Shown one piece after another: positions 14,639-64,000 of a stretch of DNA of 64,000 nucleotides. The stretch comes from an uncultured bacterium. GTDB taxonomy: Bacteria; Omnitrophota; Gorgyraeia; Duberdicusellales; CBEUCJ01. The position numbers and the translations under genes are program-made. The notes under the pieces are model-generated. The model saw nothing but the letters and a program-made list of their open reading frames with translations. It ran no database searches and was not told the DNA's origin. The number at the start of each line of letters is the position of its first letter. The stretch's first letter is position 1. The DNA is taken from contig CBEUCJ010000001.1 of the NCBI GenBank assembly GCA_965541615.1, forward strand, positions 131,754-195,753, in the 5' to 3' direction.

Positions 14639-14776
14639 GGTTTATAGAGATATTTCTATTCTATTTATTTTGAAAAAAATAAATATTCAAATGTCAATTT
14701 ATTTGTCTATTTAATGTTATATTTATTTGACATTTAATTAGAATATATGTTACAATTATTATGGAGGTGATAAAAA

Positions 14777-15100
14777 GTGCTTACTTTTGAAGAAAAGACG
14801 ACTTTAGTAGGGATCTCAGAGTTAAGGACAAAGATGAAGGAGATTTTAAAACAAGCTAAAGAAAATAGGGTATTTATTGGCAAAAGAAACAAATTAATTG
14901 CAGTATTGTTAGATATAGAAGAATACAGAAAGATGGAGAAGGTTTTAGAAGAGTTAGAAGATTTTGCCTTAGGATATTTGGCTCATCGTAGAGAAAAAAT
15001 TTCTTATAAAAAGCAATATTTAGACATAGAAGAGGTAGAAAAAATAATAGATGATATGGAAGATCAAATTCCATCCCCTTGTAGTAAAAGAAGACCTTAA
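14777..15100 (+). CDS. Phd/YefM-family antitoxin
   Basis: GTG start after a GGAGGTGA RBS. The N-terminal fold (TLVGISELRTKMKEIL...NKLIAVLLDIEEY) is typical of Phd/YefM. Confidence 0.8.
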   Translation: MLTFEEKTTLVGISELRTKMKEILKQAKENRVFIGKRNKLIAVLLDIEEYRKMEKVLEELEDFALGYLAHRREKISYKKQYLDIEEVEKIIDDMEDQIPSPCSKRRP

Positions 15101-15338
15101 AAGAATAGACCCTTCTTGGAGAAGGAGAATCATAAAAACAATAAAGAAAAAGCTATCAGTAGATCCTTCAAATTATGGTGAACCTTTAAAGGGAATATAT
15201 AAAAAATACTGGAAATTGAAAGTAGGAGATTATAGAGTTATATATAAGATAGAAAAAAAAGAAATAGTAGTATATGTAATTAAAGTTGGAATAAGAAAAG
15301 ATTATAAAGTCTATAAAGAACTTTTTTACAGAATCTAA
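15051..15338 (+). CDS. RelE/ParE-family toxin
   Basis: 95 aa ending in ...YRVIYKIEKKEIVVYVIKVGIRKDYKVYKELF. Overlaps the antitoxin by 50 nt. Confidence 0.8.
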   Translation: MIWKIKFHPLVVKEDLKRIDPSWRRRIIKTIKKKLSVDPSNYGEPLKGIYKKYWKLKVGDYRVIYKIEKKEIVVYVIKVGIRKDYKVYKELFYRI

Positions 15339-15368
15339 AAAGATAGTGTTGCATATTTTTTATAATTA

Positions 15369-15396
15369 TTGAAAAAAATCAAAGTTGTTATATAAT
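15369..15396 (+). promoter_or_regulatory. Sigma-70-like promoter for tRNA-Asp (TTGAAA, 16-nt spacer, TATAAT)
   Basis: -35 at 15369-15374 and -10 at 15391-15396, about 11 nt upstream of the tRNA. Confidence 0.45.
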
Positions 15397-15407
15397 TTTT
15401 CTACAAT

Positions 15408-15486
15408 GGGGCCGTCGTCTAGCCTGGTTTAAGACCCCGGACTGTCGATCCGGTGATCGTGGGTTCAAATCCCATCGGCCCCGCCA
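15408..15486 (+). tRNA. tRNA-Asp (anticodon GUC), CCA encoded
   Basis: Acceptor pairs GGGGCCG/CGGCCCC. Anticodon stem CCGGA/TCCGG with loop CTGTCGA. T-loop TTCAAAT and a terminal CCA. Confidence 0.85.
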
Positions 15487-48625: not shown

Positions 48626-49736
48626 AATAACAAATATTAAAATCAAAAACTTATTATCTTATATAATAGCTGCTTTCCTTTTCTTACGCCCTTTCATTAG
48701 TGATCTTACTTTTGAAAAAATAGAGATTTATTTTTCATCTCTTTTTGATCTGTTTCTCTTTTTAGAAATATTTAAAAAATTCAAAAAAAAGTTTTATGCT
48801 AAATTAGTCTCTTTCTTTTTCTTAAGCTTATTAATTAATTGCGTTTATTCTCACTCTCCTATTTTAAGTACAATTTACTTTTGTAAAAAATATGTCTTTT
48901 GTCTACTCCTTTTTTATTTTTTTCTTTTAAAAACAGAAAGAGAGCTATTTTATAGAATAATTATACTTAGTGCTTTTTTTATTCTCCTTCTTAGCTTACA
49001 TGCTCATTTTGTAGTTGCGACTCATTTAAAAGAAAAGAGTGCCTCTTGGTTTATCTATGAGTTTCTTTCTCGAAAAAGGTTATTTTTTCCTTTTGTGTTA
49101 CCAGCACATTTAGCAGGATTTTTATCTATGGTTATGTTTTTCCATTACAGGACTATTTCTAACAAATTTTTGAAGATAAGTGGTTTGGTGTTCTTTCTTT
49201 TTGGCTTACTTTTAACACAATCTATAGCAGCAGTCTTTTCTCTTTTAATGAGTGTTTTTCTATGTTTATTAATTAAAAAGAAATACAAAAGAATTTTTCT
49301 TTTACTTATACCTTCTATTTTTTTGTTAGCTTTGGTATTCTTTTTACGTCTTCAATATCATAAGGACTTTACTCAACCTTATTTTTCTCTTTTAAAAAGA
49401 ATTGAATATTTTAAAGAGACGATAAAATTAATTTCTAAACATCCTCTTCGAGGAGTGGGTATAGGTTTATTTTCTTTAAAAAATACATTGTTTTCTCATA
49501 ATCTCTTTCTTCAATTATGGGCAGAAGCAGGATTTTTAAGTTTTGTATTATTTTTAATTATTTGTATCTTTTTTATAAAGAAAGGAATGAGAGTAAAAGA
49601 AGAAAAAGATTTTTATATTTTTATAGCTGGAGTATGTTTTCTCATACATAACTTAGTAGATTTTACTTTCTTCACTTTGCAAGTTTCTTTTTTATGGTGG
49701 ATTTGTTTGGGAGTAATTTTAAGTAAGAGCGAGTAA
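48573..49736 (+). CDS. O-antigen ligase / Wzy_C-family polymerase-like membrane protein (the ORF track gives only the C-terminal 213 aa, from 49095)
   Basis: Wzy_C signature H-N-x-x-L-x-x-x-x-E-x-G (SHNLFLQLWAEAGF). The frame is open and hydrophobic for about 175 additional codons upstream of the first ATG (back to 48573) but has no in-frame ATG/GTG/TTG there. Confidence 0.55.
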
Positions 49737-50687
49737 AATTACTTTTAAAGAACATAAAAAAGATAATCCAAAAAAAATAAAAAACCACAGAAATTTTTTT
49801 AAAAAAAGAAAGATACTGCTACTTGCCCATAGAGATGTTAAGAAATAAATTAAGAAAAGAGAAAAATAATAATTATTGGTTTTTCTAAATAATCTTAAAA
49901 AAAGATGGTCTTGAGTTTTTTTAAAAGGGAAGATTCTCTTTTTAATTCTTACAAGTATAAGAAATAAAGTATCTAATATAGGCAATCCTAAGAGTAATAC
50001 AGGAACAAAGATAGCAAAAACATTCTCTAAATTAGCATAGTCAATATACATGCTGATTCCTGCAAAAAGAAATCCTAAAAAATGGCTCCCAGAGTTTCCC
50101 ATAAACATCTTTGCAGGAGGAAGATTAAAAATATAAAAAATACTTAAAGAGACAAAAAGAGAAAAGAAAAAGAAGGAAAGTAAGTAATCTTTAAGAAGAA
50201 TACAAATAAAGAGAAAAAAAAGATTAACAATTAAACTTACTCCACTACATAATCCATCTTTTATATCTAAAAGATTAAAAGCATTCATAATTCCTATTAT
50301 CCAAAGAAAAGAAAGTATAAAATTTAAAAAGGAAGGAAAAAAATATATTTGAATTCTTTTAGCAAAAATAAGAAAGATAAGACAAAAAAATATATGTAGA
50401 ATAAACTTTTTTTTAAGATCAAATTCTTTTAAATCATCAAAAAATTCGATTAAAAAAATTAGAAAAGAAAACAAAAGCAAGATTTTAAAATCTTTATCTA
50501 AAGAAATGTTTTCAATAAATACAAATATAAAAAAGCTAAGGAAAAAAGAAAGAATAATTCCCAATCCTCCTAAAAAAGAGACTTTTTCTTTTGTTTTAAA
50601 AATATTAAACTTAGAAGAAAAAAAAGAAATAAAAGAAAATATAATTGGAGTTATAATTAAGGGATAAAAAAATATACTTACTTTCAT
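49719..50687 (-). CDS. Polyprenyl-phosphate glycosyl-1-phosphate transferase (WecA/MraY family)
   Basis: N..DG.DGL-type motif (NAFNLLDIKDGLCSG) and FMGNSGSHFLG. Polytopic membrane protein. Confidence 0.75.
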   Translation of the reverse strand: MKVSIFFYPLIITPIIFSFISFFSSKFNIFKTKEKVSFLGGLGIILSFFLSFFIFVFIENISLDKDFKILLLFSFLIFLIEFFDDLKEFDLKKKFILHIFFCLIFLIFAKRIQIYFFPSFLNFILSFLWIIGIMNAFNLLDIKDGLCSGVSLIVNLFFLFICILLKDYLLSFFFFSLFVSLSIFYIFNLPPAKMFMGNSGSHFLGFLFAGISMYIDYANLENVFAIFVPVLLLGLPILDTLFLILVRIKKRIFPFKKTQDHLFLRLFRKTNNYYFSLFLIYFLTSLWASSSIFLFLKKFLWFFIFFGLSFLCSLKVILLALT

Positions 50688-51784
50688 AATTTTTGATAAA
50701 GCATCTCTATTTCTCTAATATAACGCTGATAAGACCAATATTCTGTATTTAATCTTTCTCTTTCTTTTTTTATTATTCTATTCCATTCATCTATATTCTT
50801 CAACATTTCTACACATATTTTCCCTAAATTTTTTATATCTTTAAACTCTACTACAAGCCCTTGTTTTTTATTTTTTACAATATCCAAAACTCCTCCTGTG
50901 TTGGTTACAATTAAAGGTATGCCACTTATTACTGCTTCTATTACCGATAAAGGAAGCCCTTCCCAAAGAGAAGTTAATACAAAAATAATCGTTTTTTTAT
51001 AAAAATATGTAATATCTCTTTGCCATCCTAAAAGAAATACATTTTTATCTAATCTTTTCTTTTTTATTAATCTTTTTATTTTTTTTCTTAAAGGTCCATC
51101 TCCTAAAATATAAAATTTAATTTTAGGAAAAATCTTTAAAACATCTTCTGCCATATTTAAAAAATACTTTAAACCTTTCTGAGGTTTTAAAGAAGAGACA
51201 GTGATGATAAAATTATTTGAATTTCTTTCTTTAAATACTTTCTCAAAAATATTCGTTTCAATTCCATAATGAATAAGTTTTAATTTGGAAATAGGAATTA
51301 TTTTTTTGCCTTCATTTAGGTCTTTTTTAGAGACTACAATGATTTTTTTTGTAATTTTAGCTGTCAGTTTTTCTAAAAAAAGATAAAGATAATAACTCAC
51401 AGGAGAGATAAATTTGTGGAATGGCCAACCATGCACTGTGTAGACAATATTTTTGCAACCTGCAAAGAAAGCAGCCCATCTGCCTAAAAAACTTGCTTTT
51501 GGAGAATGGGTGTGAATAATATCAAATTTATGCTTCTTTATATATAAAAATATTTTTATGAAGGCAAATATATCATAAAAAATGTTTATTTCTCTTTTTA
51601 ATTCTTTAATTAGGTAAACTTTTAAATAAGGAATCTTTAAAAAATCTTTTTTTAAAAATCCATAATCACCTGCTAAAAGGAAAAGTTTATATTTTTTAGG
51701 ATCAAGATTTTTAATGAGAAGTAAAAGCTCTTTTTGAGCTCCTCCTAATTCTAAATGAGTAATGATAAACAATATTTTTTTCAT
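50684..51784 (-). CDS. GT4-family glycosyltransferase
   Basis: GT-B fold with the E(x7)E region (LTSLWEGLPLSVIEA). Confidence 0.8.
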   Translation of the reverse strand: MKKILFIITHLELGGAQKELLLLIKNLDPKKYKLFLLAGDYGFLKKDFLKIPYLKVYLIKELKREINIFYDIFAFIKIFLYIKKHKFDIIHTHSPKASFLGRWAAFFAGCKNIVYTVHGWPFHKFISPVSYYLYLFLEKLTAKITKKIIVVSKKDLNEGKKIIPISKLKLIHYGIETNIFEKVFKERNSNNFIITVSSLKPQKGLKYFLNMAEDVLKIFPKIKFYILGDGPLRKKIKRLIKKKRLDKNVFLLGWQRDITYFYKKTIIFVLTSLWEGLPLSVIEAVISGIPLIVTNTGGVLDIVKNKKQGLVVEFKDIKNLGKICVEMLKNIDEWNRIIKKERERLNTEYWSYQRYIREIEMLYQKL

Positions 51785-52881
51785 AGTTTGGAGAAAAGAT
51801 CATTAATTTTAGATTCATAAAAAGAAAAAGAAAACTCTTTAGGTAAAAAAAGTTTTTTTTCTGAAATAGGTTTTTTTATTTTTTGGATAACTTTTTCTAA
51901 TTCATTTAACTCAAATATATTTCTGCTTTTGAAGATCTCTTTTATCTCTTTTGCTCCTCCTTTGAAAGGGAAAAATACATATTTACCATAAAAAATAGCT
52001 TCTAAGATAGCTATTCCAAAAGGCTCTTCTTTTAAAAAAGGAAAAACACAAATATCTGATAAAGATAAGATTTTATCTATGTCTTTTCTGAAACCTAAAA
52101 GATATACATTTTTTAATCCTTCTTTTTCAATAAACTTTTTTATTTTCTTCTTATAAAGTTTATTTTTTAAAGTAAAAGGAGTAATCTCTCCTACAATTAA
52201 GATGATTAAATTTTTCTTTTCTTTAATCACTCTTTTATAAGTCTTTAAAAATTCAAGTTGGCCTTTTTCTGGATGGATACGGGAGATGATACTCAAAATT
52301 ATAGATTCTTTAGGAAAGCCCATTTCTTTTCTTAAAATAAATTTATCATAAAAATTAAATCTTTCTTCATCTACCCCTTCATATATAAGATATGTTTTTT
52401 TAGAAAGAAAAAGTTTTTCTTTTATCGCCTGAGATTGTACAACTATAACATCAGAAAGTGCAGAAACTATTTTTCCCAATATATAATTTAAAGGCGAAAG
52501 GAAAAAGAATTCTCTTATATACCAAACGTGTTTTTTAAAAGTTATTTTTGCTACCAAAGATGAAAAATAAATTAATAAAGAATTAGTAACGATAATGTCA
52601 ATGGGTTTTTTAATTACATAAAAAGAAAAATAAAGAAAAGAAAAAAGAGAAAATAAAAGAAACTTTAAATAATAAATTGGAGAAAGAGAAAAGATCAAAA
52701 CAGGAAGAGGAAAGATAATAATTTTTACATTCAATTTTTTTAATTCTTCTTCTAAAGGCCCCTTTTTAGGAATAACACAGATAATCTCAAATTTTTTTGA
52801 TAACGCTTTTATTAAATTGATCAATCCTCTTTCAGCTCCATAAAGATAATTTCCTGGGTTAAATATAAGAATTTTTTTCAT
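51781..52881 (-). CDS. GT4-family glycosyltransferase
   Basis: GT-B fold (FPFLKEEPFGIAILEA). Confidence 0.75.
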   Translation of the reverse strand: MKKILIFNPGNYLYGAERGLINLIKALSKKFEIICVIPKKGPLEEELKKLNVKIIIFPLPVLIFSLSPIYYLKFLLFSLFSFLYFSFYVIKKPIDIIVTNSLLIYFSSLVAKITFKKHVWYIREFFFLSPLNYILGKIVSALSDVIVVQSQAIKEKLFLSKKTYLIYEGVDEERFNFYDKFILRKEMGFPKESIILSIISRIHPEKGQLEFLKTYKRVIKEKKNLIILIVGEITPFTLKNKLYKKKIKKFIEKEGLKNVYLLGFRKDIDKILSLSDICVFPFLKEEPFGIAILEAIFYGKYVFFPFKGGAKEIKEIFKSRNIFELNELEKVIQKIKKPISEKKLFLPKEFSFSFYESKINDLFSKL

Positions 52882-53723
52882 TTTTTGAGCATGTTAGGTA
52901 ATTCTTTAAATATCTGAAAAAAATAAGGATTAGTAAGAGCAAAATATAAAGATCTGGTTATTTCGTAAGGAAAGCTTTTTAAGAAAAATAAGAAAGATTT
53001 TTTCTTATGATATTTTAATATAACATATAATCTGTTTCTAAAGCACAAATATTTTCTTAATTTTTTAGATATAGGAAAGCCTCCTCCATAATGAAAACAG
53101 ATAAGTTGAGGAAAAAAATTAGTCTTAATATTATATTTTTTCATTTTCATATATAAATCTAATTCTTCAAAAAGAAAAAATATTTTATTATCGAAGACTT
53201 CTCCTTTTTCTTTTATTTTTTCTAAAATTTCCTTTTTAAAGATAGCACAACATAAATTAGGAGCATCTACAAAAAAGGAAGAAGAAAACTTTTTTGGAGA
53301 TTGGTTTTTTCCAATATCATATATTCTATAGAAAGAGCTTATTTTCAATCCACAAGAAAAGATTTTTTTATTTTTTTGATTGATAATTTTAGGAGCAATG
53401 ACAAAATCTATTTTATTTTGAGATATTATTTTTTCTAATTCAAAGAAAAAATTTTTCTCTAAAAAAGCATCACTATCCATGAACATAATAAAATCTCCAT
53501 TTGCTTTTTTAATACCTTCATTGCGAAAAAAACAAGCTCCTTTATTTTCTTTAAATGGAATTATTTTGAAATTATTCGATAATTTTAAATTTTTTTTCAA
53601 AGATATTTTCCCAACCAGAAGAATTTCTATTTTATAAGATTTTTTTTGGTAAAATGATGAAAGAAAATTTAATGTTGAAGGGATTAAATCATTTCCTATA
53701 GGGATAATTACAGATATTTTCAT
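52878..53723 (-). CDS. GT2-family glycosyltransferase
   Basis: N-terminal ISVIIP and a DxD motif (DSDAF). Confidence 0.75.
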   Translation of the reverse strand: MKISVIIPIGNDLIPSTLNFLSSFYQKKSYKIEILLVGKISLKKNLKLSNNFKIIPFKENKGACFFRNEGIKKANGDFIMFMDSDAFLEKNFFFELEKIISQNKIDFVIAPKIINQKNKKIFSCGLKISSFYRIYDIGKNQSPKKFSSSFFVDAPNLCCAIFKKEILEKIKEKGEVFDNKIFFLFEELDLYMKMKKYNIKTNFFPQLICFHYGGGFPISKKLRKYLCFRNRLYVILKYHKKKSFLFFLKSFPYEITRSLYFALTNPYFFQIFKELPNMLKK

Positions 53724-54296: not shown

Positions 54297-54590
54297 ATGT
54301 GTAGAGAGGAGATAATAGAAAAAATTTTAGTACCCAATGAAGAGATAATTTCATTTAAGGAGATTGATGGAGAGATCGTTTTTTTTCACAAAGAAGAGAG
54401 AAATCTTTATGAATTGAATGAGACAGCAAATTTTATTTGGAAAGAGTTAATTAAAGGAAAGAAACCTAAAGATGTTATAAGAAGTATGCAAAAAAAGTTT
54501 AAAGAAATAAAAAAAGAAGTTTTAGAAAAAGATGTTTTGGATTTTATAAAAAAATTAATTGACAAAAAAATATTTTTGGTCAAAAAATGA
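54297..54590 (+). CDS. PqqD-family protein (RiPP recognition element, RRE)
   Basis: 97 aa with the PqqD signature (LYELNETANFIWKEL...G...P.DVI..M...F....E.LEKDVLDFIKKLIDKKI). GGAGGTG RBS. Confidence 0.8.
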   Translation: MCREEIIEKILVPNEEIISFKEIDGEIVFFHKEERNLYELNETANFIWKELIKGKKPKDVIRSMQKKFKEIKKEVLEKDVLDFIKKLIDKKIFLVKK

Positions 54591-54674: not shown

Positions 54675-55880
54675 ATGGATCGAGAGTTTGAAGTAATCAA
54701 ATACTTAACAAAAGAAGTAGTATATGGAAGATATAAAGAACATTTGATAAATTTTTTAACTTCTACTAAGTTAGAGTGGGAAAAGTTAAAGTTCATGTTA
54801 CTTTACAATGAGTTAGCTTCTTTTTTATATATAATATTAAAAAACAATTCCTTATCTCTTCCTTTTGATTTTCTTTCTTTTCTTAAGAATGTCTATTATA
54901 GAGACTTATTTAGATATATTGTATTATTTAATGAGTTATTGACTATACTAGATGCGGCTAATAAGAAGTCAATTCTTATCATACCCATAAAAGGTTTTTC
55001 TATCGGTGAAGAGTATTACAAAAAATTCGGTTTTAGACCTTTGAGTGACATAGATTTATTAATTAAAGAGGAAGAATTAGAAAAAGGAATAAAACTTTTA
55101 TGCGAATTAGGATATGAGAAAAATTTTTTTGGAGCTAAAGAAAGTTATTGGCGTAATAAACAATGTCATATAAACTTTCTAAAAAGAAATAAAAACGGAT
55201 CTATTCTAGTAGAACTTCATTGGTCTTTAGATTTTAAAAGAGACAATAAATATGCCCTTTCTTGTTTATGGAAAAGATTGAAGAAAGTAAAAATAAAAGA
55301 TAAAGAAATTTTTGTTATGGCACCAGAGGATACTTTATTTTCTCTAGCACTTCATCAAAGAAGATTTGGGAAAGTATTTAATCTCAAATATATTTGTGAT
55401 GTAGGCATTATCTTAGAAAAGGAAAAACTTAATTGGGAATATATAATCGAGGCTGCTTATCGAGAAAGAATTAAAGCTTCTTTGTATTTTTTACTATATC
55501 AGACACAGATTATTTTAGATAAAGATCTCAGTAAGTATTTAAAAAAACTAAGAATTAGTTCTTGGCATAAAAGACTAATTTCTTGTGTTATTAGAAAATA
55601 TACAAAATCTTTTATAACTCCTTTTAATCTAAAATATGTCTATACAATTTGTCATTTTCTTCTCTACGACAATATACTCTATCCTATCAAATACGTTTTT
55701 ACTGTTCCTCAGGAACAATTTGCAAAATTTTATCATCTTCCTTTTTATACACCAACTACAGAGAGACTTTATAAACTAAGATATTTATATATTCCTTATA
55801 AAACTGTTAAGGAATTGTTGGATAGGAAAATCTTTAAACGGAATTTTTTAGAAAAATTTAATAGCTGTTTATTTTTGTAA
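54675..55880 (+). CDS. Uncharacterised nucleotidyltransferase (PF14907/NTP_transf_5-like)
   Basis: 401 aa with a GFRPLSDIDLLI nucleotidyltransferase motif. This family is recurrent in RiPP cassettes. Confidence 0.6.
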   Translation: MDREFEVIKYLTKEVVYGRYKEHLINFLTSTKLEWEKLKFMLLYNELASFLYIILKNNSLSLPFDFLSFLKNVYYRDLFRYIVLFNELLTILDAANKKSILIIPIKGFSIGEEYYKKFGFRPLSDIDLLIKEEELEKGIKLLCELGYEKNFFGAKESYWRNKQCHINFLKRNKNGSILVELHWSLDFKRDNKYALSCLWKRLKKVKIKDKEIFVMAPEDTLFSLALHQRRFGKVFNLKYICDVGIILEKEKLNWEYIIEAAYRERIKASLYFLLYQTQIILDKDLSKYLKKLRISSWHKRLISCVIRKYTKSFITPFNLKYVYTICHFLLYDNILYPIKYVFTVPQEQFAKFYHLPFYTPTTERLYKLRYLYIPYKTVKELLDRKIFKRNFLEKFNSCLFL

Positions 55881-56608
55881 GAAGAAGGAATATAAATATA
55901 AATATTCTCTCTTTTCTTTACTACTTCTAAACCTTTCTTAATTAAATGTGATCCTACGCCTCTAGCACGATATAATAGTTTTACATAAGGACCTAGAAAT
56001 AAAATATTATGAGAATTTTTATCTTTTAATATCCAAAGTTTACCTATAGGGATTTTCTCTATTACAGCTACAAGTTTATAGAGAATTACCCAAGAGGGAT
56101 TAGGAAAAAAAATATTATAAAAACTTCTAAATAAAATTTCTTCCTCTTCTTTTCTAACTAAAATATACTTCACCTTCTTTAAAGGAAATAATTTTTTTAA
56201 TAATTTTCTAAAAAAATTAGAAGAATAAAGAATTTCTGTAAATAAATAAGTCGATTCTTTTAAAAAAGAAAAGAAGTTTACAAAAATATAATATAAAAAA
56301 GTATTTTCAAATTTTAAATATTTCAACTTATCTTTTCTATATACGCCTATCACTTTTCCCAAGATATCCTTTGCTTTAACTTTTTCTTTTTTCCAAAAAT
56401 TGAAATCTCCTTTGGTATAAATAATATTATTGTTTTTATCTATTTTTATAACTCTATGGCATATGTACTGCCTTTTTTTTCTAAAAATAATAATATCTCG
56501 AAGAAAAATCTGTGATAAGTTAGTTTTTTTGACTAAAATTTTTTCTTGATTTCTTATAGTAGGATACATACTTTGACCTCTTGAGAGTAAATAAAAGATT
56601 CTTCTCAT
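55796..56608 (-). CDS. Signal peptidase I (S26, Ser/His SipW-like)-GNAT acetyltransferase fusion protein
   Basis: N-terminal S26 boxes (GQSMYPTI, YICHRVIKI with His in place of the bacterial Lys, TKGDFN). C-terminal GNAT motif A (YRARGVGSHLIKKGLE). Confidence 0.55.
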   Translation of the reverse strand: MRRIFYLLSRGQSMYPTIRNQEKILVKKTNLSQIFLRDIIIFRKKRQYICHRVIKIDKNNNIIYTKGDFNFWKKEKVKAKDILGKVIGVYRKDKLKYLKFENTFLYYIFVNFFSFLKESTYLFTEILYSSNFFRKLLKKLFPLKKVKYILVRKEEEEILFRSFYNIFFPNPSWVILYKLVAVIEKIPIGKLWILKDKNSHNILFLGPYVKLLYRARGVGSHLIKKGLEVVKKRENIYIYIPSSYKNKQLLNFSKKFRLKIFLSNNSLTVL

Positions 56609-57389
56609 TTAATAATTTTTAATTAATTCCAAAATTATTAAGAGTGAGAGTTTCAAAAAATCTTTGTTTTATATTCGGGATGACTTCCATAGAGATTTTC
56701 ACCAAAAAATTAATCAAAAGATATTTTCATCTTCTATAAGTACCCCATATTTTTATCCCTTTCTACTAAAACTTCAAATTCAGATATATCATTAACTAAT
56801 AAAGCAGTCAATAGTTTTGTTATTACTTCCATAAGAAAAATAGCAATTAGCTCAGATTTTGTTTTATTGTGATGTTTTTATTTTTTAAACAAATTTTGGA
56901 TTAGAGAGTTTATAGTGAAACATTGTTTCTTTATAAAATATCAAGAAGATAAAAAGCATATTCTCTCCTTAAGAGACGAGTATTTTTTAATTGAAGAGAT
57001 GAAAAAACCAAGACTAAGATAGGCTGATATATTCTCATACTGCCACAAATAGAATATCAGAACAAAATTAAAAGATAAAAAAGTTGCAGAGAATTAAAAA
57101 AATATAGAGTTTTTGAATATAATCAAATCGATGTAAAAAAGATTCAAAAATATTCCTAACCTTTGGGTTTATATGGAAGGATTTGATATTTCCAAATGTT
57201 AAATAGCTTTTGGAGAATTATCTGCAAGAGATAGTTTCTACGTTATACTGTAAAATTTTTACATAATCATTTATTTCAAAACAAAAGTAGAAGCATTTGA
57301 GCATTCTTAATCAGAGGAAAATATCTATTCTCTTTAAAAGAAAAAGGAGTAAAATATAGAAAATAGTTTTTTAAAAACATTAAAAATTT

Positions 57390-57473
57390 ATGGATAATGT
57401 AGTGTTAAGAACCTGCTCATTTTCAACTTTAGAGATTATTTTCTATTTTTCAATTTTGTTTTTAGAAAGTTAA
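57390..57473 (+). CDS. Candidate 27-aa small ORF immediately upstream of, and coupled to, the radical SAM gene
   Basis: ATG...TAA ends 1 nt before the rSAM ATG and encodes MDNVVLRTCSFSTLEIIFYFSILFLES. No clear SD sequence. Confidence 0.2.
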   Translation: MDNVVLRTCSFSTLEIIFYFSILFLES

Positions 57474-57474
57474 T

Positions 57475-58560
57475 ATGAGAAAAAGAGATAAAAATATCCT
57501 TTTTACCCCTTTTCTTATCCAATGGCATATTACCGAGAGGTGTAATTGGAACTGTTTGCACTGTTATAGGAAGAGAAATTCATGTGTAGATTTACCCTTA
57601 AGTGATTTGAAGTATATTCTTCATCAGTGTTTGGGATTATTGGAAGTCTTAGATGTAAAAGATGTGCGAATAAATATTGGAGGAGGGGAGCCGTTTTTAA
57701 GAGAAGATATTTGGGATTTCATAAAGATATTAAAGAAATACAAAGAGATAAAATTGTATATTATGACAAATGGGTCTTTAATTTCTAAAGATGTAGCAAG
57801 AGCACTTTCAAAGATTAAAACTCTTAAAGGAGTTCAGGTAAGTATGGAAGGGTTAAAAGAAACTAATGATAAAATAAGAGGAAAAGGGAGTTTTGAGAAA
57901 ATAGAAAGAGCCATTCGAACTCTAGTCAAGTATAATATTTTTACTAGAGTTTCAGTGACTCTTACAAAGTTAAATTTAGAAGAAATAGAACCCTTGGTAT
58001 CATATCTTAAGGAGTTAGGAGTAAATAATGTCGGTATAAGACGGTTTGTTCCCGTAGGAAAAGGAGAAATTTTAAAAAAGTATATGCTTTCACCATTGGA
58101 GACGAGGGATTTTTATCTATTTAGAGAAGAACTTATGGATAAATATTGTGATAAAAATTTTACAATTTCTTATGGATGTGAAGATGGACTTCTTGTTCAA
58201 GAGGTTGAGAAAATAAGTAAGAAAAGGAGGAAATATCTATACTATACAAATTGTGCAGTATTAAGAAGGAGGGCTCTTACTATTCTTGATAATGGAGATA
58301 TACTTTTGTGTAGGAGGCTTCCTATAAAGATTGGCAATGTTTTTGAAAAAAACTTAGAAGAGATTTTCTTTTTTTCAACACTTGTTCAAAAAATGAGTAA
58401 TTGGAGGAATTTTCTTTCGTATTGTGAAGATTGTCCTTTTTTTTCTTATTGTTTAGGAGGAGCAAGATGTATTGCCTATGGATTCTTTAAAAAAATAGAT
58501 GCACCAGATCCTCAATGTTGGAGGCTCTTTACAGTATTACCTAATTCTGGTATAATTTAA
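57475..58560 (+). CDS. Radical SAM/SPASM-domain peptide-modifying enzyme
   Basis: CxxxCxxC (CNWNCLHC), GGGEPF, and a C-terminal SPASM Cys cluster (CEDCPFFSYCLGGARC). Confidence 0.85.
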   Translation: MRKRDKNILFTPFLIQWHITERCNWNCLHCYRKRNSCVDLPLSDLKYILHQCLGLLEVLDVKDVRINIGGGEPFLREDIWDFIKILKKYKEIKLYIMTNGSLISKDVARALSKIKTLKGVQVSMEGLKETNDKIRGKGSFEKIERAIRTLVKYNIFTRVSVTLTKLNLEEIEPLVSYLKELGVNNVGIRRFVPVGKGEILKKYMLSPLETRDFYLFREELMDKYCDKNFTISYGCEDGLLVQEVEKISKKRRKYLYYTNCAVLRRRALTILDNGDILLCRRLPIKIGNVFEKNLEEIFFFSTLVQKMSNWRNFLSYCEDCPFFSYCLGGARCIAYGFFKKIDAPDPQCWRLFTVLPNSGII

Positions 58561-58578: not shown

Positions 58579-58731
58579 GTGAAAAAGAAATTCTTAATTA
58601 ATTTTCAAGAAAGTAAGAAGAAAGATGCCATTCAAAAAAAAGTTTATCAGAAACCAAAGATAAAAAGAGTTGTCTACAAGAAGAAGAAGCTTCCTGTAGC
58701 TATAGCACAGAGTTGCGCCCTTTGTGTATAG
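58579..58731 (+). CDS. Candidate RiPP precursor peptide (50 aa; not in the ORF track, which stops at 60 aa)
   Basis: GTG start 7 nt after a GGAG (AAAAGGAG) RBS. Encodes MKKKFLINFQESKKKDAIQKKVYQKPKIKRVVYKKKKLPVAIAQSCALCV: a Lys-rich leader and a Cys/Ser-containing C-terminal core. Lies between the rSAM/SPASM gene and the HprK-like kinase. Confidence 0.5.
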   Translation: MKKKFLINFQESKKKDAIQKKVYQKPKIKRVVYKKKKLPVAIAQSCALCV

Positions 58732-58744
58732 TTATTTTTAATAA

Positions 58745-59635
58745 ATGCCCTTTTCCTACCAAATAGTCCTTAATAATTTCTCTCTTTCCTTGCATATACA
58801 AGCTGAAAGTTATGTTATTCAGATAATCAGGAAATTCTTACTATATATTTCTCCATGGATTAGAATAGAGAAAATAAAAGGGTACGATAAGAATTTTCAG
58901 ATTTATTTAAAGCCTCTTTCAAAGCCATCTGTAAGACTTCTAGGTGGAGGAAACAAAATTGTGAAGGAAGAAATTAGAAATAAAGATGAGTTTATAATAT
59001 GGTCATCATGGGATGGCTCTTTTTTAAAGACCGATCTTAGGAAAAAAATAGCATATGGAGAATTAGGGAAAAATGAAGTAATAGGTATTTCTATCTTAAG
59101 ACGTTGGTTTGAGACTTTTGTATTCTTAAATAATTGTATTTTTTTACATTCAGCTAATATAAAAGTTAAAAATACATTGAGTACTCTTCTTATAATAGGC
59201 GACTCTGGAAGTGGAAAGAGCACCTTATCTTCTCTTATAAGAAATTATTTCCATTTTAAAGTCATAGATGATGATATAACAGGGTTATTGGATTTTAAAA
59301 AGATTTACTCTTTTTCAATTAGATTTATTTCTTCTTTGGGAAATTTTTTAGAAGTAGAGGCTCTAAAGTTAGAACCAATAGGAATTCCCAGGTTTATTCT
59401 ATTTGTAGAGAGAAAGAAGACAATGTCTAAATTGTGCAGATTAACTTCTAAAGAAGCTTTTAAAAGAGTATGTTTTTTTGCTGAATTTTCCTCTTTTGAT
59501 AATAAAATGTTTGAGCATAAGGTGAAGATTCTAGATAAATTAATAAATCAATGTAATTGTTTTTTGTTAATAAATGGTAAAGATATTTCTAAAGATCCTT
59601 CAAAATTAATCTCACTTTTTTCTTATATTATTTGA
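58745..59635 (+). CDS. HprK-related P-loop kinase (HPr kinase C-domain-like)
   Basis: FLHSANIKVKNTLSTLLIIGDSGSGKSTLS...FKVIDDDITGL parallels the HprK P-loop (GDSGVGKSE) and the following ADD segment. Confidence 0.65.
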   Translation: MPFSYQIVLNNFSLSLHIQAESYVIQIIRKFLLYISPWIRIEKIKGYDKNFQIYLKPLSKPSVRLLGGGNKIVKEEIRNKDEFIIWSSWDGSFLKTDLRKKIAYGELGKNEVIGISILRRWFETFVFLNNCIFLHSANIKVKNTLSTLLIIGDSGSGKSTLSSLIRNYFHFKVIDDDITGLLDFKKIYSFSIRFISSLGNFLEVEALKLEPIGIPRFILFVERKKTMSKLCRLTSKEAFKRVCFFAEFSSFDNKMFEHKVKILDKLINQCNCFLLINGKDISKDPSKLISLFSYII

Positions 59636-60584
59636 CATTTAAAAACTTATCCCATGGGATATGGAGTCTACCCATTATACATTCACCTTTTTCATCTAAT
59701 GTAGGCAACAATAAACATCGAAATTTGCAATAAGGAAGAAGATAGCAATTTTTACACACATCTTCTATTTTTTCTCTATGTTTAAAAGGATATTTTGTGG
59801 TTTTTTTCTTTGTACACGAACTTAAAGATCCATCTGTGTCAATAACCGTTACTCCTTCTGTACAGAAATAGGAACAACCTATCATAGGAATTAATTTATA
59901 TCTTTGAGGAACTAATAAGAAAGAAAAATATCTAACTAAAGAATTTTTACCAAAATAATGATTAAAATCATAGAGTAGTCTATTTAAAATGTCGAAAAAA
60001 TCGTGATGGGGCAAATAATCTTTTCTGTTTTTCGAAAAAACAGGAATTTCTCTTTCCCAAAATATTTCATCTATTAGTTCTTCCTTTAAGAGTTTAATTA
60101 CCAATGAGATTAACCAGTTATATGATGTTTTTCGCAGTAAAGTAACTACTACTTTTATTTTAATATTTTCTTTCTTAACATATCTAAGATATTTAAAAGC
60201 TTCTTTTTGATTTCTCCAAAAATTTCTATACTTGTCTAGAGAAATGGTTAAAGTTAAATGGTTACGTTGTATGAAATCTATACGTTCTTCAATTTTATCT
60301 TTTCTAAAGAAAAAATCAGGATTAGAGGTAATTTCTATATCTACGTCAGGAAAGTTTTTAGAGACGATACTTGCTATTTCATTTAATTTATGAATATCTA
60401 TAGTAAAAGGTTCTCCACCGTGGATAATAACTTTTTGGATTTCTTCTTTTTTAATTTTTTTTATAGATTCCATTAATACGGTCGGAGTTATCATTCTCTT
60501 GGGTGTTTTTTTTACATAACAATGAGGGCATCTAAAAGGGCAGTAATTGGTAGTTTCAATGACTAAAGTTTTTGGAAATGTCAT
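59628..60584 (-). CDS. Radical SAM/SPASM-domain enzyme (second maturase)
   Basis: CxxxCxxC (CPFRCPHC), GGEPF, and a C-terminal Cys cluster (CKNCYLLPYCKFRC). Confidence 0.8.
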   Translation of the reverse strand: MTFPKTLVIETTNYCPFRCPHCYVKKTPKRMITPTVLMESIKKIKKEEIQKVIIHGGEPFTIDIHKLNEIASIVSKNFPDVDIEITSNPDFFFRKDKIEERIDFIQRNHLTLTISLDKYRNFWRNQKEAFKYLRYVKKENIKIKVVVTLLRKTSYNWLISLVIKLLKEELIDEIFWEREIPVFSKNRKDYLPHHDFFDILNRLLYDFNHYFGKNSLVRYFSFLLVPQRYKLIPMIGCSYFCTEGVTVIDTDGSLSSCTKKKTTKYPFKHREKIEDVCKNCYLLPYCKFRCLLLPTLDEKGECIMGRLHIPWDKFLNVK

Positions 60585-61573
60585 TTCTCATTGCTCATTG
60601 CCCTTTCAGCTTCTAATAATATACAATTTACTTCTTTACTTTCTTCAACAGTAAACATTGAAGGAGTTTTAAGAATTACAGGGATTTCTAAGATGATTGA
60701 TACTATTTTAGTTGGAATATTTTTAAATCTAGATGGAATCCATAATTTTGTATATTCTCGAGGTAATAATTCTTTAGCTATTCTCGAATAAGAAAAATTT
60801 TTATACTCTTCTTTGATTAAATGAGAGAGCTCATGTTTTGATAAAATTTTTTTAATCAAGTAGAGTTTTTTATTAAGTCGTATTAATTTTTTTAACATTA
60901 TTGAAGAAGGATGGAAAGCGTATGTCTTGTAAACTATATGATCATCTTCTTTTATATTTATATTCCGGAACACTCCTAATGTGGAGAACCTGTATTTGGG
61001 CGATGTTTTGAAAAATATAGGGAAATATATTTTATCTTCTGCCCCACAATGTTTGTAGATTTCTAAATATGCATTTTTTATCCTTTCTCTTTCCTCAGAA
61101 TTCTTAAATATTTTATTAAAGTTTATTACCTTTGGAGAAACGAATAAAATAATATCTCTTATTTTGTTATCTTTATGTAATGTGATAGATTTAATTGTAC
61201 GGAATTTTAGAAATTGTAATTTGTCTTCTCTTACTGCCATATAGTAGATGTCATCATTGGGACGATAAGGTAAGGCTTTGTAGGAAATGGAAGGAAAAAG
61301 CAGACGGTTATTTTTTATTTTTCCATAAAGAAGAATACTTTCTTTGAATGATAGATATTTAGCATTGTTGAGCAAAGTTTTTATTTTATTTAAAGATATT
61401 TCTCCATTATCTATCAGGTCTGAATATTTTGCTTTAAGTAGATATATAGACGTATAATAGGGAATTCTTTTTTCTGAGAGAAGCCAAAAATAAAGAGCAG
61501 CTAATACCGTGAGACAAATTATTAGTAGGAATGAGATTTTTGTTTTTTTAGAGAATTTCAATATGTGAGTCAT
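60581..61573 (-). CDS. Hypothetical membrane-anchored protein
   Basis: 330 aa with an N-terminal TM helix and no recognisable domain. Overlaps both flanking genes. Confidence 0.4.
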   Translation of the reverse strand: MTHILKFSKKTKISFLLIICLTVLAALYFWLLSEKRIPYYTSIYLLKAKYSDLIDNGEISLNKIKTLLNNAKYLSFKESILLYGKIKNNRLLFPSISYKALPYRPNDDIYYMAVREDKLQFLKFRTIKSITLHKDNKIRDIILFVSPKVINFNKIFKNSEERERIKNAYLEIYKHCGAEDKIYFPIFFKTSPKYRFSTLGVFRNINIKEDDHIVYKTYAFHPSSIMLKKLIRLNKKLYLIKKILSKHELSHLIKEEYKNFSYSRIAKELLPREYTKLWIPSRFKNIPTKIVSIILEIPVILKTPSMFTVEESKEVNCILLEAERAMSNEK

Positions 61574-63059
61574 TATTCACCTCCTCTTTTATTATTTCTT
61601 CCATATTTTTAAATACCACTTCCTTATTTTCAAAAAAAATATTGCTTCCTACTTTAAGAATATTTTTTACTTTTCCTTGAGAAATATTTTTTAAACTCTT
61701 ATTTCTTAATTTTCCTATTATAGCAAAGTACTCATCGCTCTCCTTTTCTTTAAATACTCTTATTATATTTTCAAAGTTTTTTCGAAGAAAATCCCTATAA
61801 TAATTATTCCATAAAAAGGAAAGATTTCTAACTAATAAAATATACTTAATATTTTTTTCTTCTACAAAAAATAATTTAGAAATTTCCACCCTTTTAACTA
61901 ATATCACTTTTTTATTTAAGAGTTTTATGGACTTAATTACTTTATCTATAGGTATTGTATCAGGTATAAAACCTTTGTAGTTTCCACATGGTAAGAGAAT
62001 TCTATCTTTAAATTCGTTCTTAATTTTGTTAAATGTATTAAAGTCACCCGTTATTTCTATTCTATCTTGCATTACTCTTATACATATATATTCTCTGTTT
62101 AAAAGATAATTTCCGACTAATAGAAATCCTCCAATAAATGGAGTATTTTTGTTTGTAAAAAAATATAATCCTATATCAGATATTCTTTTATTTAATGGGA
62201 AAAAAGGAGCTTTATTGAACCAAAAAAAGACGGCACGGATGATATAGAGGAGGACAATAATTTTAACTTCAAGCATATCTGTGCTTGCTATACTCCAGTT
62301 AGGTATGAAGCAGGGGGGTAGGTATAGGAAACTTTCAAGAGTAAAAGTGCCTCTTTTGTTTTTATGGATAAAGAATACGCTATGGTTATCTTCGTTTATG
62401 CAAGACGATTTTAAGCGGGTTACTCTATGGATAGTTACTATAGGAAGAAAATCGGGAGAGATTTTCATTAAATTACATAAGAAAGCACTATTTTTTAGAT
62501 AATTTATCCTGACTTTATTTTTTTCTATAATAACATTTATAAAAGAGTCTATAAATATTTCAAAAATTCCATCTTTTTTATTATGATTTACTAAAGAAAC
62601 TCTATATTTTCTTATTCTGTCTATAGTTTTTATGAAGAGCTCTTGAATTGTCTCTTTTTCTAAAAATAATATTTTATAGAGAATATCACCTGTGGGGGTA
62701 AGAACAAGTAAAGGATACAATAGATTTAAATTAAAAGGCTTTTCCGTATTTATTTTTATACTTTTGAAGAGAAAAACCTTTTCCTTATTATATATTTCTA
62801 TCCAAACACCAAAGTTAAAGAAGACTGATCTATCTTTTTCTTCTGATGTAGTATGAAAATTTTCGAAATTAATAATTTCTCGTCTTGAGAAATAATTTAT
62901 GAGCTCTTCGTTCTTATAAGAAATCATATAAGAAATCAACGGAATGATATGTGTTTTCTCCTTTTCGAAATACAAAGATTTTTCCAAAAAGTTTTTGTAA
63001 TCAGATAAATTCTCTTTATTTTTATAATCTTCCAAAAATCTTCTAATTAAAGTCGACAT
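61548..63059 (-). CDS. Hypothetical protein (503 aa)
   Basis: Long ORF in operon with the neighbouring genes. No recognisable motif. Confidence 0.4.
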   Translation of the reverse strand: MSTLIRRFLEDYKNKENLSDYKNFLEKSLYFEKEKTHIIPLISYMISYKNEELINYFSRREIINFENFHTTSEEKDRSVFFNFGVWIEIYNKEKVFLFKSIKINTEKPFNLNLLYPLLVLTPTGDILYKILFLEKETIQELFIKTIDRIRKYRVSLVNHNKKDGIFEIFIDSFINVIIEKNKVRINYLKNSAFLCNLMKISPDFLPIVTIHRVTRLKSSCINEDNHSVFFIHKNKRGTFTLESFLYLPPCFIPNWSIASTDMLEVKIIVLLYIIRAVFFWFNKAPFFPLNKRISDIGLYFFTNKNTPFIGGFLLVGNYLLNREYICIRVMQDRIEITGDFNTFNKIKNEFKDRILLPCGNYKGFIPDTIPIDKVIKSIKLLNKKVILVKRVEISKLFFVEEKNIKYILLVRNLSFLWNNYYRDFLRKNFENIIRVFKEKESDEYFAIIGKLRNKSLKNISQGKVKNILKVGSNIFFENKEVVFKNMEEIIKEEVNNDSHIEIL

Positions 63060-64000
63060 TTTTTAAATTATTAAAGAATAATTTTGCTAGCTTTAGAGAG
63101 TATAGATAATCTTCAGAAAAAATTCTATCCTTAGGATACATAAAAGGTATAAATCCATTTTTAAGAATTATTCCACTAAGGTTAAGGATAACTTTCTTAT
63201 TTTTCATTTCTATTAATGAAAGTTTCTCCAAACATGCTAAATGATCTTCTAGTAATTGAAAAAGAGAAGGAGGCAACATAGCTTCATAACACCAATATAA
63301 GAGAAGTCGGAATCTAGATACCTCTAAGGAGATATTTTTTTCTTTTTTAAAAAGAATATTCTCTAAACCACGTTTTTTTATATTTAAGAAATACTGAGGG
63401 GGATTAGGGTTTACTTTATTTAGATCATAATAACGTGTTTCTGCAAGAGGTCCTAAACCTATTTGGATAGTTTTTCCATTGAAAATTTCTTTATTAATCT
63501 TTATTTCCTCATAGGGAAAACTTTTTGTCGTTTTTTTAAAAGTAAATCTAATTCCTGCTCCTCCCTTTCTTATGAACAAATTATTTTTTATAAAGTTATT
63601 GCTCACTATGAAAGAGAAAAGAATCCTTTTTATAATGTCTTCTAAGAAGGAGTATTTTGGAGAGTAGATTTTGTTCATTCTTTTTTTAGAACTGTAGTTA
63701 TAAAGAGTAATAAAAATTTCTTTATTATCTTTGAAGTTTTTTAGGAAAGATATAAGATTTATTAAATCTGTTAAATAATTAAAATTAACTTCAGGATAGT
63801 CTATAATAAGATCAATATTTAAACTCAAATCTAACTCTAATACATTTTTTATGCCTTCTAGTACTGTATCCTTTGTATAACGTCTTTCCATTTTTTTTAA
63901 AATACTATTTCTAAGACTTTCTACCCCTAGAGAGATATAATTGAAACCAATATCCTTCAAATTCTTAAGGAAATTTTTGTCTATGCCATATTTATCAGGA
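63043..64000 (-). CDS. Radical SAM-family protein, C-terminal portion (N-terminus beyond the window end)
   Basis: The frame stays open to the window edge. The ...GFNYISLGVESLRNSILKKMERRYT... block is typical of the radical SAM core downstream of the CxxxCxxC loop, which would lie outside the window. Confidence 0.55.
   Translation of the reverse strand, partial: PDKYGIDKNFLKNLKDIGFNYISLGVESLRNSILKKMERRYTKDTVLEGIKNVLELDLSLNIDLIIDYPEVNFNYLTDLINLISFLKNFKDNKEIFITLYNYSSKKRMNKIYSPKYSFLEDIIKRILFSFIVSNNFIKNNLFIRKGGAGIRFTFKKTTKSFPYEEIKINKEIFNGKTIQIGLGPLAETRYYDLNKVNPNPPQYFLNIKKRGLENILFKKEKNISLEVSRFRLLLYWCYEAMLPPSLFQLLEDHLACLEKLSLIEMKNKKVILNLSGIILKNGFIPFMYPKDRIFSEDYLYSLKLAKLFFNNLKNVDFN

Follow-up and report, generated by a model that had tools for sequence, protein, structure and literature searches.

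A divergent HprK/PEPCK-fold protein encoded with a PqqD protein, a radical SAM/SPASM enzyme and a lasso-type leader peptide in an uncultured Omnitrophota bacterium is a candidate peptide kinase

Results

The cassette around the kinase-like gene

The DNA analysed here, called the window throughout, is a stretch of 64,000 nucleotides from an uncultured Omnitrophota bacterium (GenBank assembly GCA_965541615.1, contig CBEUCJ010000001.1, positions 131,754 to 195,753), and the subject of the analysis is a gene at window positions 58745-59635 that a preliminary description had interpreted as an HprK-like P-loop kinase that tailors a peptide. It was found that this gene is part of a conserved cassette that also encodes a PqqD protein, an NTP_transf_5 protein, an S24/S26 peptidase, a radical S-adenosylmethionine (SAM)/SPASM enzyme and a precursor peptide of about 50 residues. 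Profile comparisons and a structure prediction indicate that the kinase-like protein is a very divergent member of the HprK/PEPCK (phosphoenolpyruvate carboxykinase)-fold P-loop superfamily. The cassette genes are as follows.

54297..54590, plus strand: PqqD-family leader-binding protein (a RiPP recognition element, RRE, where RiPP stands for ribosomally synthesised and post-translationally modified peptide), 97 aa (PqqD, 1.3e-13)
54675..55880, plus strand: NTP_transf_5 nucleotidyltransferase-fold protein, 401 aa (PF14907, 6.9e-35)
55796..56608, minus strand: S24/S26 signal-peptidase-like peptidase with a C-terminal extension (weak GNAT-like match), candidate leader peptidase
57475..58560, plus strand: radical SAM/SPASM maturase, called rSAM1 below, 361 aa (Radical_SAM, 5.6e-22; SPASM, 5.1e-06)
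58579..58731, plus strand: precursor gene, 50 aa, MKKKFLINFQESKKKDAIQKKVYQKPKIKRVVYKKKKLPVAIAQSCALCV, with a GTG start and AGGAG 7 nt upstream
58745..59635, plus strand: kinase-like open reading frame (ORF), 296 aa, with an ATG start, beginning 13 nt downstream of the precursor gene

The kinase-like protein and its homologues

The 296-aa protein consists of a β-rich N-terminal domain (approximately residues 1-110) and a C-terminal P-loop domain. The preliminary description had drawn attention to this ORF, to a P-loop block in it and to a VIDDD-type segment downstream of the block, and all three were found in place: the P-loop block is LLIIGDSGSGKSTLS (residues 148-162, nt 59186-59230), and the segment is VIDDD (residues 173-177, nt 59261-59275). 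An exhaustive phmmer search of 1.84 billion representatives returned 61 proteins with E<=1e-3, including 20 with E<=1e-10. Two alignments were used: A1, with 54 homologues, and A2, with the 29 closest relatives aligned over their full length. A word-indexed homologue search was much less productive, returning only the protein itself when started from it and four proteins when started from A2, and with the kinase-like protein alone as the query no relative was found in 185,579 species genomes. The catalytic-site candidates are as follows.

59147..59149, plus strand: His135, invariant in A1 and A2, the counterpart of BsfK H148 and of the conserved His of the HprK type by hhalign
59198..59224, plus strand: Walker A loop G152-D-S-G155-S-G157-K158-S159-T160, with G152, G157 and K158 invariant in A1
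59267..59275, plus strand: Asp175-Asp176-Asp177, in which the family-conserved pair is D176-D177

His135 is thus joined by three invariant Walker A residues in A1, and T160 and D177 are kept in at least 90% of its sequences. The Walker A loop of the family, GDSG[AS]GKST, is the same as that of the lasso-peptide kinase PadeK, and hhalign pairs D176-D177 with the Asp-Asp of the lasso kinases, equivalent to D186-D187 of BsfK (Mg2+ ligand/catalytic Asp). Further conserved blocks in A2 are G91-S92, F220, 'PIS.KEAFKRI.F.S' and 'L.NGKDLK.NP'. Because of the 61 homologues and the conservation of the motif residues in A1, the P-loop is not accidental.

Membership in the HprK/PEPCK-fold superfamily

The relationship to HprK is visible only by way of intermediates, profile-profile comparison and structure, because direct scans of the window protein remain below threshold (the curated cut-offs are 33.3 bits for PF07475, 240 bits for TIGR00679, 125 bits for TIGR04249 and 200 bits for TIGR04352 and TIGR04355). 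Among the 54 homologues in A1, matches were obtained to HprK_rel_A (33/54, best 6.8e-15), HprK_rel_B (16/54), HPr(Ser) kinase/phosphatase (16/54), Pfam Hpr_kinase_C (18/54) and ScmC (14/54); the best E-values were 5.6e-08 for PF07475 and 3.4e-09 for TIGR00679, both still sub-threshold. In distant relatives, the alignment to HprK_rel_A extends beyond the P-loop and takes in the entire catalytic domain (model positions 89-266 of 280). Three members of the close subfamily (P0009, P0013 and P0017) match HprK_rel_A or the HPr(Ser) kinase model directly at about 1e-6, and the relatives P0005 and P0008 have weak PF27840 matches. When the A2 subfamily was compared by hhalign with proteins of 300-370 aa, most of which carry PF27840 ('ScmC') and/or PF07475, a value of 99.6% (E 1e-23) was obtained over 282 columns.

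The structural comparisons point in the same direction. Both profiles match the HprK crystal structures 1jb1, 1ko7 and 1knx (E about 1e-6 for A1 and 0.0025 for A2) in alignments of 58-92 residues that take in both the His and the Asp-Asp pair, and few other matches in the PDB extend well past Walker A. AlphaFold with the A1 alignment gave a model with a pLDDT of 88 and a pTM of 0.84, disordered only at residues 196-204 (pLDDT 36 without an alignment), which is predicted to have a PEP-carboxykinase-like P-loop fold: the best 50 Foldseek matches were all PEP carboxykinases (best E 7e-9). The protein therefore resembles HPr kinase/phosphorylase (HprK/P) in this fold and in having the Walker A sequence GxSGxGKS with an upstream His and a downstream Asp-Asp, a set that is kept in the 54 homologues. 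It differs from HprK/P in its N-terminal domain and in genomic context, which is peptide maturation for the window gene and carbon catabolite control for HprK/P. Within NCBIfam, the best relatives found for the wider family are HprK-related kinases A and B, HprK_rel_A being matched over most of the catalytic domain; both of these families are themselves uncharacterised.

Several results weigh against this assignment. The preliminary description had proposed a profile check of its HprK reading, and in the direct scan (hmmscan against Pfam) no PF07475 Hpr_kinase_C match was found at E<=0.1, the only matches being generic Walker-A families. The HprK-related models, which were part of the same proposal, gave 16.9 bits for TIGR04355 (HprK_rel_B; E 0.0027, residues 69-163) and 13.5 bits for TIGR04352 (HprK_rel_A; E 0.029), in both cases far below the cut-off. 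TIGR00679 was absent from the best 25 of 26 NCBIfam matches at E<=0.1, TIGR04249 (ScmC) did not match, and there was no precomputed Pfam domain, PF27840 included. With phmmer against the PDB, the matches were confined to the Walker A of ABC transporters. The Foldseek matches are to PEPCK rather than to HprK, with low TM-scores of about 0.35. Past the Asp-Asp pair, the central HprK/P signature loop, which we take to be an E-x-R-G-x-G-type motif, could not be read in residues 178-215, a stretch that is variable and gapped in A2 and includes the region of low model confidence at 196-204. Of the HprK resemblance originally proposed, superfamily membership is thus upheld by the intermediates, hhalign and the model, whereas a direct match at the PF07475 or HprK-related kinase A/B thresholds is not obtained. 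A plain Pfam scan overlooks this clade of kinase-like proteins entirely.

Lasso-peptide kinases as the nearest characterised relatives

The preliminary description had pointed to HprK homologues of paeninodin-type lasso-peptide clusters, and the lasso-peptide kinases (PadeK, ThcoK, PsmK and BsfK) are indeed the nearest characterised relatives. A comparison of the subfamily by hhalign with lasso-kinase fragments of about 100 aa (PMC10368454, Figure S10) gave 97.8% (E 7e-13), a similarity that exists at the profile level only and over fragments of that length. The subfamily hidden Markov model (HMM) scored 23-46 bits on these fragments versus about 20 bits on full HprK/P chains, which places the window protein nearer to the peptide kinases than to HprK/P. 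One segment of the window protein, IIGDSGSGKSTL, differs from the PadeK segment IIGDSGAGKSTL at one position.

A motif common to all lasso kinases, H148-G163-G166-G168-K169-S170-D186-D187 in BsfK numbering, has been described, and variants of it in BsfK had diminished activity, except that G166A and G168A were about as active as the wild type (PMC10368454). It is matched in the window protein by H135-G152-G155-G157-K158-S159-D176-D177, with a His-to-Gly spacing of 17 compared to 15 in BsfK and a Ser-to-AspAsp spacing of 17/18 (16/17 if D175 is counted) compared to 16/17.

The genomic setting is also comparable. BsfK is encoded in a Bradymonas lasso cluster together with a nucleotidyltransferase, and it phosphorylates core Ser3 and not a C-terminal Ser; the reaction depends on a YxxPxL motif in the precursor leader and is strongly accelerated by BsfB1, a PqqD-type RRE (PMC10368454). 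The window likewise combines an HprK-like P-loop protein that has the H-G-G-G-K-S-D-D motif with a PqqD-type RRE and with a precursor that has a YxxPx[L/I/M] leader (Y23-Q-K-P26-K-I28), and a nucleotidyltransferase is often encoded nearby in lasso systems as it is in the window. The two kinds of system differ in their other enzymes, which are a cyclase and a B2 transglutaminase-like protease in lasso clusters and a radical SAM/SPASM enzyme and an S24/S26 peptidase in the window. No lasso cyclase (Asn-synthetase-like C protein) or transglutaminase-like B2 protein was found in the ORFs of the 54-64 kb region, in the other large ORFs of the window or in genes called within about 10 kb past the window end, and in the related loci a radical SAM or YcaO enzyme occurs in their stead.

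In the biosynthesis of pseudomycoidin, PsmN places a hexose onto the phosphoserine and the phosphate is retained. The window resembles the PsmK/PsmN system in that kinase-like and nucleotidyltransferase-fold genes occur together beside a precursor and an RRE. Pseudomycoidin differs in having a lasso scaffold and a C-terminal Ser acceptor, and the NTP_transf_5 protein is no more than a putative counterpart of PsmN.

The precursor peptide family

The preliminary description had proposed a candidate precursor with a core Ser beside the kinase-like gene. This is borne out: the 50-aa ORF is genuine, with homologues in nine other loci (loci are designated L002 to L015 below), and its Ser45 stands next to Cys46. 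The ten precursor ORFs (about 43-64 aa) lie near kinase-like genes, nine of them directly upstream (window, L002-L007, L011 and L012) and that of L013 upstream of the radical SAM gene. All ten contain the leader Y-x-[KRA]-P-x-[ILMVF]-K-[KRE]-[VI], which reads Y23-x-x-P26-x-I28-K-R-V in the window; to judge from the sequence, this is the lasso-type YxxPxL motif recognised by PqqD-type RREs, which in paeninodin is YSKPSLEVL.

From 10 to 16 residues past the leader motif there is a run of small residues, often A-x-A, followed by Ser or Thr in 9 of the 10 precursors. The junctions are as follows.

Window: VAIAQ-S-C, with the AxA-like site A41-I-A43 before S45-C46
L007: SALAG-S-C
L011: SVAS-S-C
L012: AAGVS-S-C
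L004: AVAA-S-G
L005: AVTS-S-G
L006: TIAA-S-G
L003: FTT-S-G
L013: MAAGT-T-Y

By analogy with BsfK, the phosphate would most plausibly be accepted by the conserved Ser, which is at position 1-3 of the predicted core. An AxA-like site would suit an enzyme of the signal-peptidase type, which makes the S24/S26 protein plausible as the leader peptidase; cleavage there would leave a core of about seven residues (QSCALCV) in the window. The tails are Cys-rich in most loci and Gly/Ser-rich or free of Cys in L006 and L002. Six of the seven precursors scanned, including that of the window, had no NCBIfam or Pfam match, and L003 had only a weak match of the thiazolylpeptide type; an assignment of the window peptide to a known family was accordingly dropped.

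Two features possibly related to expression were noted around the precursor gene.

58528..58556, plus strand: promoter-like site TTTACA-17-TATAAT with an extended TG, an 11/12 consensus match, in the 3' end of the radical SAM gene just 5' of the precursor
58705..58727, plus strand: terminator-like hairpin overlapping the last precursor codons, with an 8-bp stem (3 GC pairs) followed by ATAGTTATTT

The first is the best promoter-like match in the region, where the total is not above shuffled expectation, and two terminator-like sites were found versus 1.5 expected. The hairpin gives a hint of a possible attenuator between the precursor and kinase-like genes. Such a layout, which consists of consensus matches only, would favour the precursor transcript over the kinase transcript.

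Recurrence of the cassette in other genomes

The cassette was found in at least 10 loci, in Omnitrophota, Planctomycetota and other bacteria, and its closest orthologues are in metagenome-assembled genomes of the first two. The contigs with the closest kinase-like homologues (L002-L007) have these genes, and further loci were located by scanning the rSAM1 alignment across the 185,579 species genomes. Orthologues of rSAM1 with at least 41% identity occur in Omnitrophota (L011 and L015), Planctomycetia (L012 and L013) and a Saccharibacteria metagenome-assembled genome (MAG) (L014, cut at the contig end). All seven orthologous loci with a readable downstream flank have the kinase-like gene and PqqD, usually with NTP_transf_5 and S24. 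In contrast, 74 of the 75 loci with more distant radical SAM genes (<=37% identity, mostly from Nitrospirota and deltaproteobacteria) have no kinase-like, PqqD or NTP_transf_5 gene. The linkage of rSAM1 to the kinase-like gene is therefore specific. The kinase-like gene is tightly linked to the precursor gene in 10 of 10 loci and to the PqqD RRE in 9 of 10, the other being the short contig L003.

The arrangement of the genes varies among the loci as follows.

L004, L005 and L006: PqqD, radical SAM, small ORF and kinase-like gene; L006 additionally has S24, NTP_transf_5 and a second radical SAM/SPASM gene
L002: S24, PqqD, small ORF and kinase-like gene
L003: YcaO (2.2e-63), small ORF and kinase-like gene, on a short contig
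L007: an NTP_transf_5::radical SAM/SPASM fusion and a ThiF/YcaO protein

BLAST identities to the window orthologues are 41-56% for the radical SAM enzyme, 42-55% for NTP_transf_5 (found in L006, L007, L012, L013 and L015), 28-56% for the S24 peptidase (L002, L006, L012, L013 and L015) and 27-41% for PqqD, which is conserved in 10 related loci. The fusion in L007 (11106-13388, GCA_020047475.1) is a 760-aa protein and argues that the nucleotidyltransferase-fold protein and the radical SAM enzyme share a substrate. YcaO cyclodehydratase genes accompany the precursor and kinase-like pair in L003 (2-1309) and L007 (5319-7685, with a ThiF-like domain), and therefore some members of the family are probably azol(in)e-modified too.

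Two more distant loci were also noted. In a Pyrinomonadaceae MAG (L008 7791-9763, GCA_024330265.1), a 354-aa relative with weak PF27840 and PF07475 matches lies between a PqqD gene and a 59-aa ORF that ends in ...GGSIPS. Genes for Transglut_core3 (lasso B2-like) and NTP_transf_5 proteins are nearby, there is no lasso cyclase gene within 8 kb, and the locus looks like a lasso-type leader-processing set without the cyclase. L010 (1-10276, Logan SRR22388277) has a pair of ScmC-type paralogues along with a PqqD gene and five or six genes for radical SAM proteins, one of them B12-binding. Its two precursors are in tandem and have the leader FKPEITKVEL and the Ser-rich ends ...SSSASS and ...PSSVSS; all proteins scanned from this locus scored below the SynChlorMet cut-offs. 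The precursors ending in Ser beside these distant ScmC-like proteins are consistent with a kinase function across the wider clade.

The other cassette proteins and the surrounding genes

The presence of a radical SAM/SPASM enzyme beside the kinase-like gene, as claimed in the preliminary description, was corroborated, and the arrangement is kept in other loci. The further claim of a radical SAM-crosslinked product is not established, as orthologous enzymes (47-51% identical) serve precursors with cores that lack Cys, among them that of L006 (47% identical to rSAM1). The best NCBIfam match of rSAM1 was to the ACGX system (154 bits), then GeoRSP, SbtM and ScmE; membership in any of these was dropped because the scores are far below the cut-offs. 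The best matches of the PqqD protein, also sub-cut-off, were lasso PqqD chaperone models (3.8e-9 and 2.3e-8) and ScmD (3.3e-7). The S24/S26 protein scored 48.2 bits against the archaeal-type signal peptidase I model TIGR02228 (cut-off 51.85) and 2.6e-5 against Peptidase_S24.

Between the divergent S24 peptidase and radical SAM genes, an interval of 865 bp (56609-57474) has no credible ORF, and no Rfam family, pseudogene remnant or second precursor was found in it; a copy of it from another sample (L001) is slightly different. Downstream of the kinase-like gene, a convergent minus-strand block (59628-64000, continuing in L001 10884-17429) encodes radical SAM proteins of 318 aa (with a Cys-rich C terminus) and of 483 and 560 aa (both HemN-like; best matches HemN, HemW and the STM4012 family, all sub-cut-off), as well as proteins of 330 and 503 aa without a family match. 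These genes were rejected as cassette members, as the related loci contain no homologue of any of them, and the block looks like a separate multi-radical SAM operon.

Genes for a glycosyltransferase, a Wzy_C (O-antigen polymerase-like) protein and an ABC-2 transporter surround the cassette in the window (49095-53723), L004, L006, L007 and L012, and Phosphodiest-family genes flank it in L004 and L006. A link of the cassette to the synthesis of cell-surface polysaccharide is possible. The remainder of the window (1-48625) is ordinary bacterial chromosome, with V/A-type ATPase subunits, DnaG, RpoD, a class I tRNA synthetase, exonuclease VII, a MurA-like EPSP_synthase, PBP2, RodA, and tRNA-Val and tRNA-Asp at 14564-15486; these two tRNAs were the only matches in an Rfam scan of the window, and its other large ORFs are housekeeping genes.

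Comparison with the SynChlorMet cassette

The preliminary description had regarded a phosphorylated, radical SAM-crosslinked peptide as a combination not described to its author's knowledge, which is overstated. Neighbourhoods with HprK-like, PqqD and radical SAM/SPASM genes exist as curated entries, namely the SynChlorMet cassette (TIGR04248-04251), Pfam PF27840 'ScmC' and the HprK-related kinases A and B, and the SynChlorMet models are weakly matched by the kinase-like family. Because these neighbourhoods are catalogued, the gene combination is not new. The likeness lies in the neighbourhood logic, in which an HprK-like P-loop protein is combined with a PqqD protein (ScmD) and a radical SAM/SPASM enzyme (ScmE/ScmF), and in the full-length homology of the subfamily to PF27840-bearing proteins described above. 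The differences lie in the scores of the window proteins (no match to ScmC; ScmD 30.4 versus 100 bits, ScmE 112.9 versus 400 and ScmF 72 versus 400), in the additional NTP_transf_5 and signal-peptidase-like proteins, and in the precursor family, which fits no model; ScmC itself has no demonstrated function. In the literature library searched, no paper was found giving a product or an activity for HprK-like/PqqD/radical SAM cassettes; for ScmC, only unrelated acronyms were among the matches listed, and searches for SynChlorMet and HprK-related kinase gave nothing relevant. Therefore, the window locus appears by sequence comparison to be a new variant within the catalogued neighbourhoods, to which it adds the NTP_transf_5 protein, the S24/S26-type peptidase and the unmatched precursor family.

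Discussion

We propose that the kinase-like protein is probably an RRE-assisted, ATP-dependent Ser/Thr kinase that acts on the linear precursor. Homology and fold, together with a catalytic motif, a cassette and a leader that are all conserved, are what the analysis shows; we infer that the protein is active as a kinase, which residue accepts the phosphate, in which order the steps occur, and the roles of the S24/S26 protein as leader peptidase and of the NTP_transf_5 protein. In the proposed pathway, the PqqD protein would bind the lasso-like leader of the precursor, after which the kinase-like protein would use ATP-Mg, by means of the Walker A loop G152-T160, His135 and Asp176/177, to phosphorylate a Ser or Thr hydroxyl while the precursor is still linear. 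The likeliest acceptor would be Ser45 (...VAIAQ-S-CALCV), just past the small-residue junction, on the analogy of Ser3 of the BsfK substrate. Decoration of the phosphate by the NTP_transf_5 protein, for which pseudomycoidin is the precedent, may follow; the radical SAM/SPASM enzyme would make a further modification, and the signal-peptidase-like protein would remove the leader past the AxA-like site.

Some observations on the protein and the precursors are difficult for this proposal, in addition to those raised above against the superfamily assignment. The kinase-like protein passes no curated family threshold and is the least conserved component of the cassette, with 25-35% identity to its window orthologue compared to about 50% for the radical SAM and NTP_transf_5 proteins. 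The conserved Ser stands at a variable distance of 22-25 residues from the leader Tyr, and it cannot be aligned cleanly in L002, where the junction is ambiguous. Furthermore, in none of the 10 precursors is there a Ser at the C-terminal end (the last residue in the window is Val), where the best-studied lasso kinases have their acceptor. In paeninodin-type kinases the acceptor is the C-terminal Ser, and therefore that mechanism is inapplicable to this subfamily. Consequently, the paeninodin precedent put forward in the preliminary description holds for the kinase relationship and fails for the acceptor, for which core Ser3 of the BsfK substrate is the better precedent.

One alternative is that phosphorylation occurs but is transient, the Ser or Thr being activated as a leaving group for β-elimination to dehydroalanine or for displacement, as in class III/IV lanthipeptide synthetases, so that the mature product carries no phosphate. 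In at least 5 of 10 precursors a Ser immediately precedes a Cys (QSC in the window, GSC in L007 and L003, SSC in L011 and L012), which is in keeping with this, as are the nucleophiles that Cys-rich cores would supply and the flanking Phosphodiest-family genes of L004 and L006. We nevertheless regard it as unlikely, since no lyase or cyclase domain was found in the window cassette proteins by Pfam and NCBIfam scans, the cores of L006 and L002 have no Cys, and the conserved partner NTP_transf_5 has in pseudomycoidin a putative counterpart that builds on a retained phosphate. The protein might instead bind or hydrolyse ATP without phosphotransfer to the peptide and keep the leader/RRE complex in place, in the manner of a scaffold or chaperone, for the radical SAM enzyme or the peptidase. 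Its failure at all curated kinase thresholds and its being the fastest-evolving member of the cassette would fit such a role, and its different maturase partners (mostly radical SAM enzymes, and YcaO in L003 and L007) would fit generic leader handling. This accessory role has a low probability in our estimation: His135 and Asp176/177, the counterparts of which are catalytically important in BsfK, lie outside Walker A and yet are kept across 54 homologues, and the nearest characterised relatives are true kinases.

The glycosyltransferase, Wzy_C and ABC-2 genes around the cassette in the window, L004, L006, L007 and L012 suggest a different kind of substrate, for example a polysaccharide or sugar intermediate made by these genes, and the phosphonate kinase FomB and PEPCK have the same fold and act on small molecules. 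It is nonetheless very improbable that the protein is a kinase of such a substrate or a regulatory HPr-type kinase, given the linkage to a precursor in all 10 loci (with the kinase-like gene directly downstream in nine) and to a PqqD RRE in nine, the profile that is nearer to peptide kinases than to HprK/P, and the absence of the architecture expected of HprK/P. There is next to no chance that the P-loop lies in a spurious ORF. The AT-rich window (28% GC) does give many long spurious ORFs, and no clear Shine-Dalgarno sequence was seen upstream of the ATG, but this reading is refuted by the homologue search with its 61 proteins, the full-length A2 alignment, the confident AlphaFold model and the conserved synteny. 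A kinase acting on the linear precursor is thus the interpretation that we prefer.

It may be, as we suggest tentatively, that the cassette represents an undescribed RiPP class, in which the leader/RRE/kinase/nucleotidyltransferase module of lasso systems has been recombined with a radical SAM/SPASM enzyme and a cytoplasmic signal-peptidase-like leader peptidase. Its product would be a very short peptide (about 7-11 residues, ...QSCALCV) with phospho- or phosphoglycosyl-Ser and a radical SAM modification, from uncultured bacteria of the Omnitrophota/Planctomycetota type, possibly tied to the adjacent cell-surface polysaccharide genes.

To our knowledge, lasso peptides are the only peptides for which phosphorylation by HprK-like kinases has been demonstrated, and many HprK-like/ScmC genes that lie beside PqqD and radical SAM genes are catalogued without an assigned function. 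The window locus is a compact test case, with six genes, a 50-aa precursor, a recognisable leader and a candidate acceptor Ser, and it could show whether a kinase and an RRE (with or without a nucleotidyltransferase) form a portable tailoring module for non-lasso scaffolds. If so, phospho- or phosphoglycosyl-Ser would join the chemistry of radical SAM-modified peptides, and hundreds of ScmC-like proteins that are now 'hypothetical' could be given a function.

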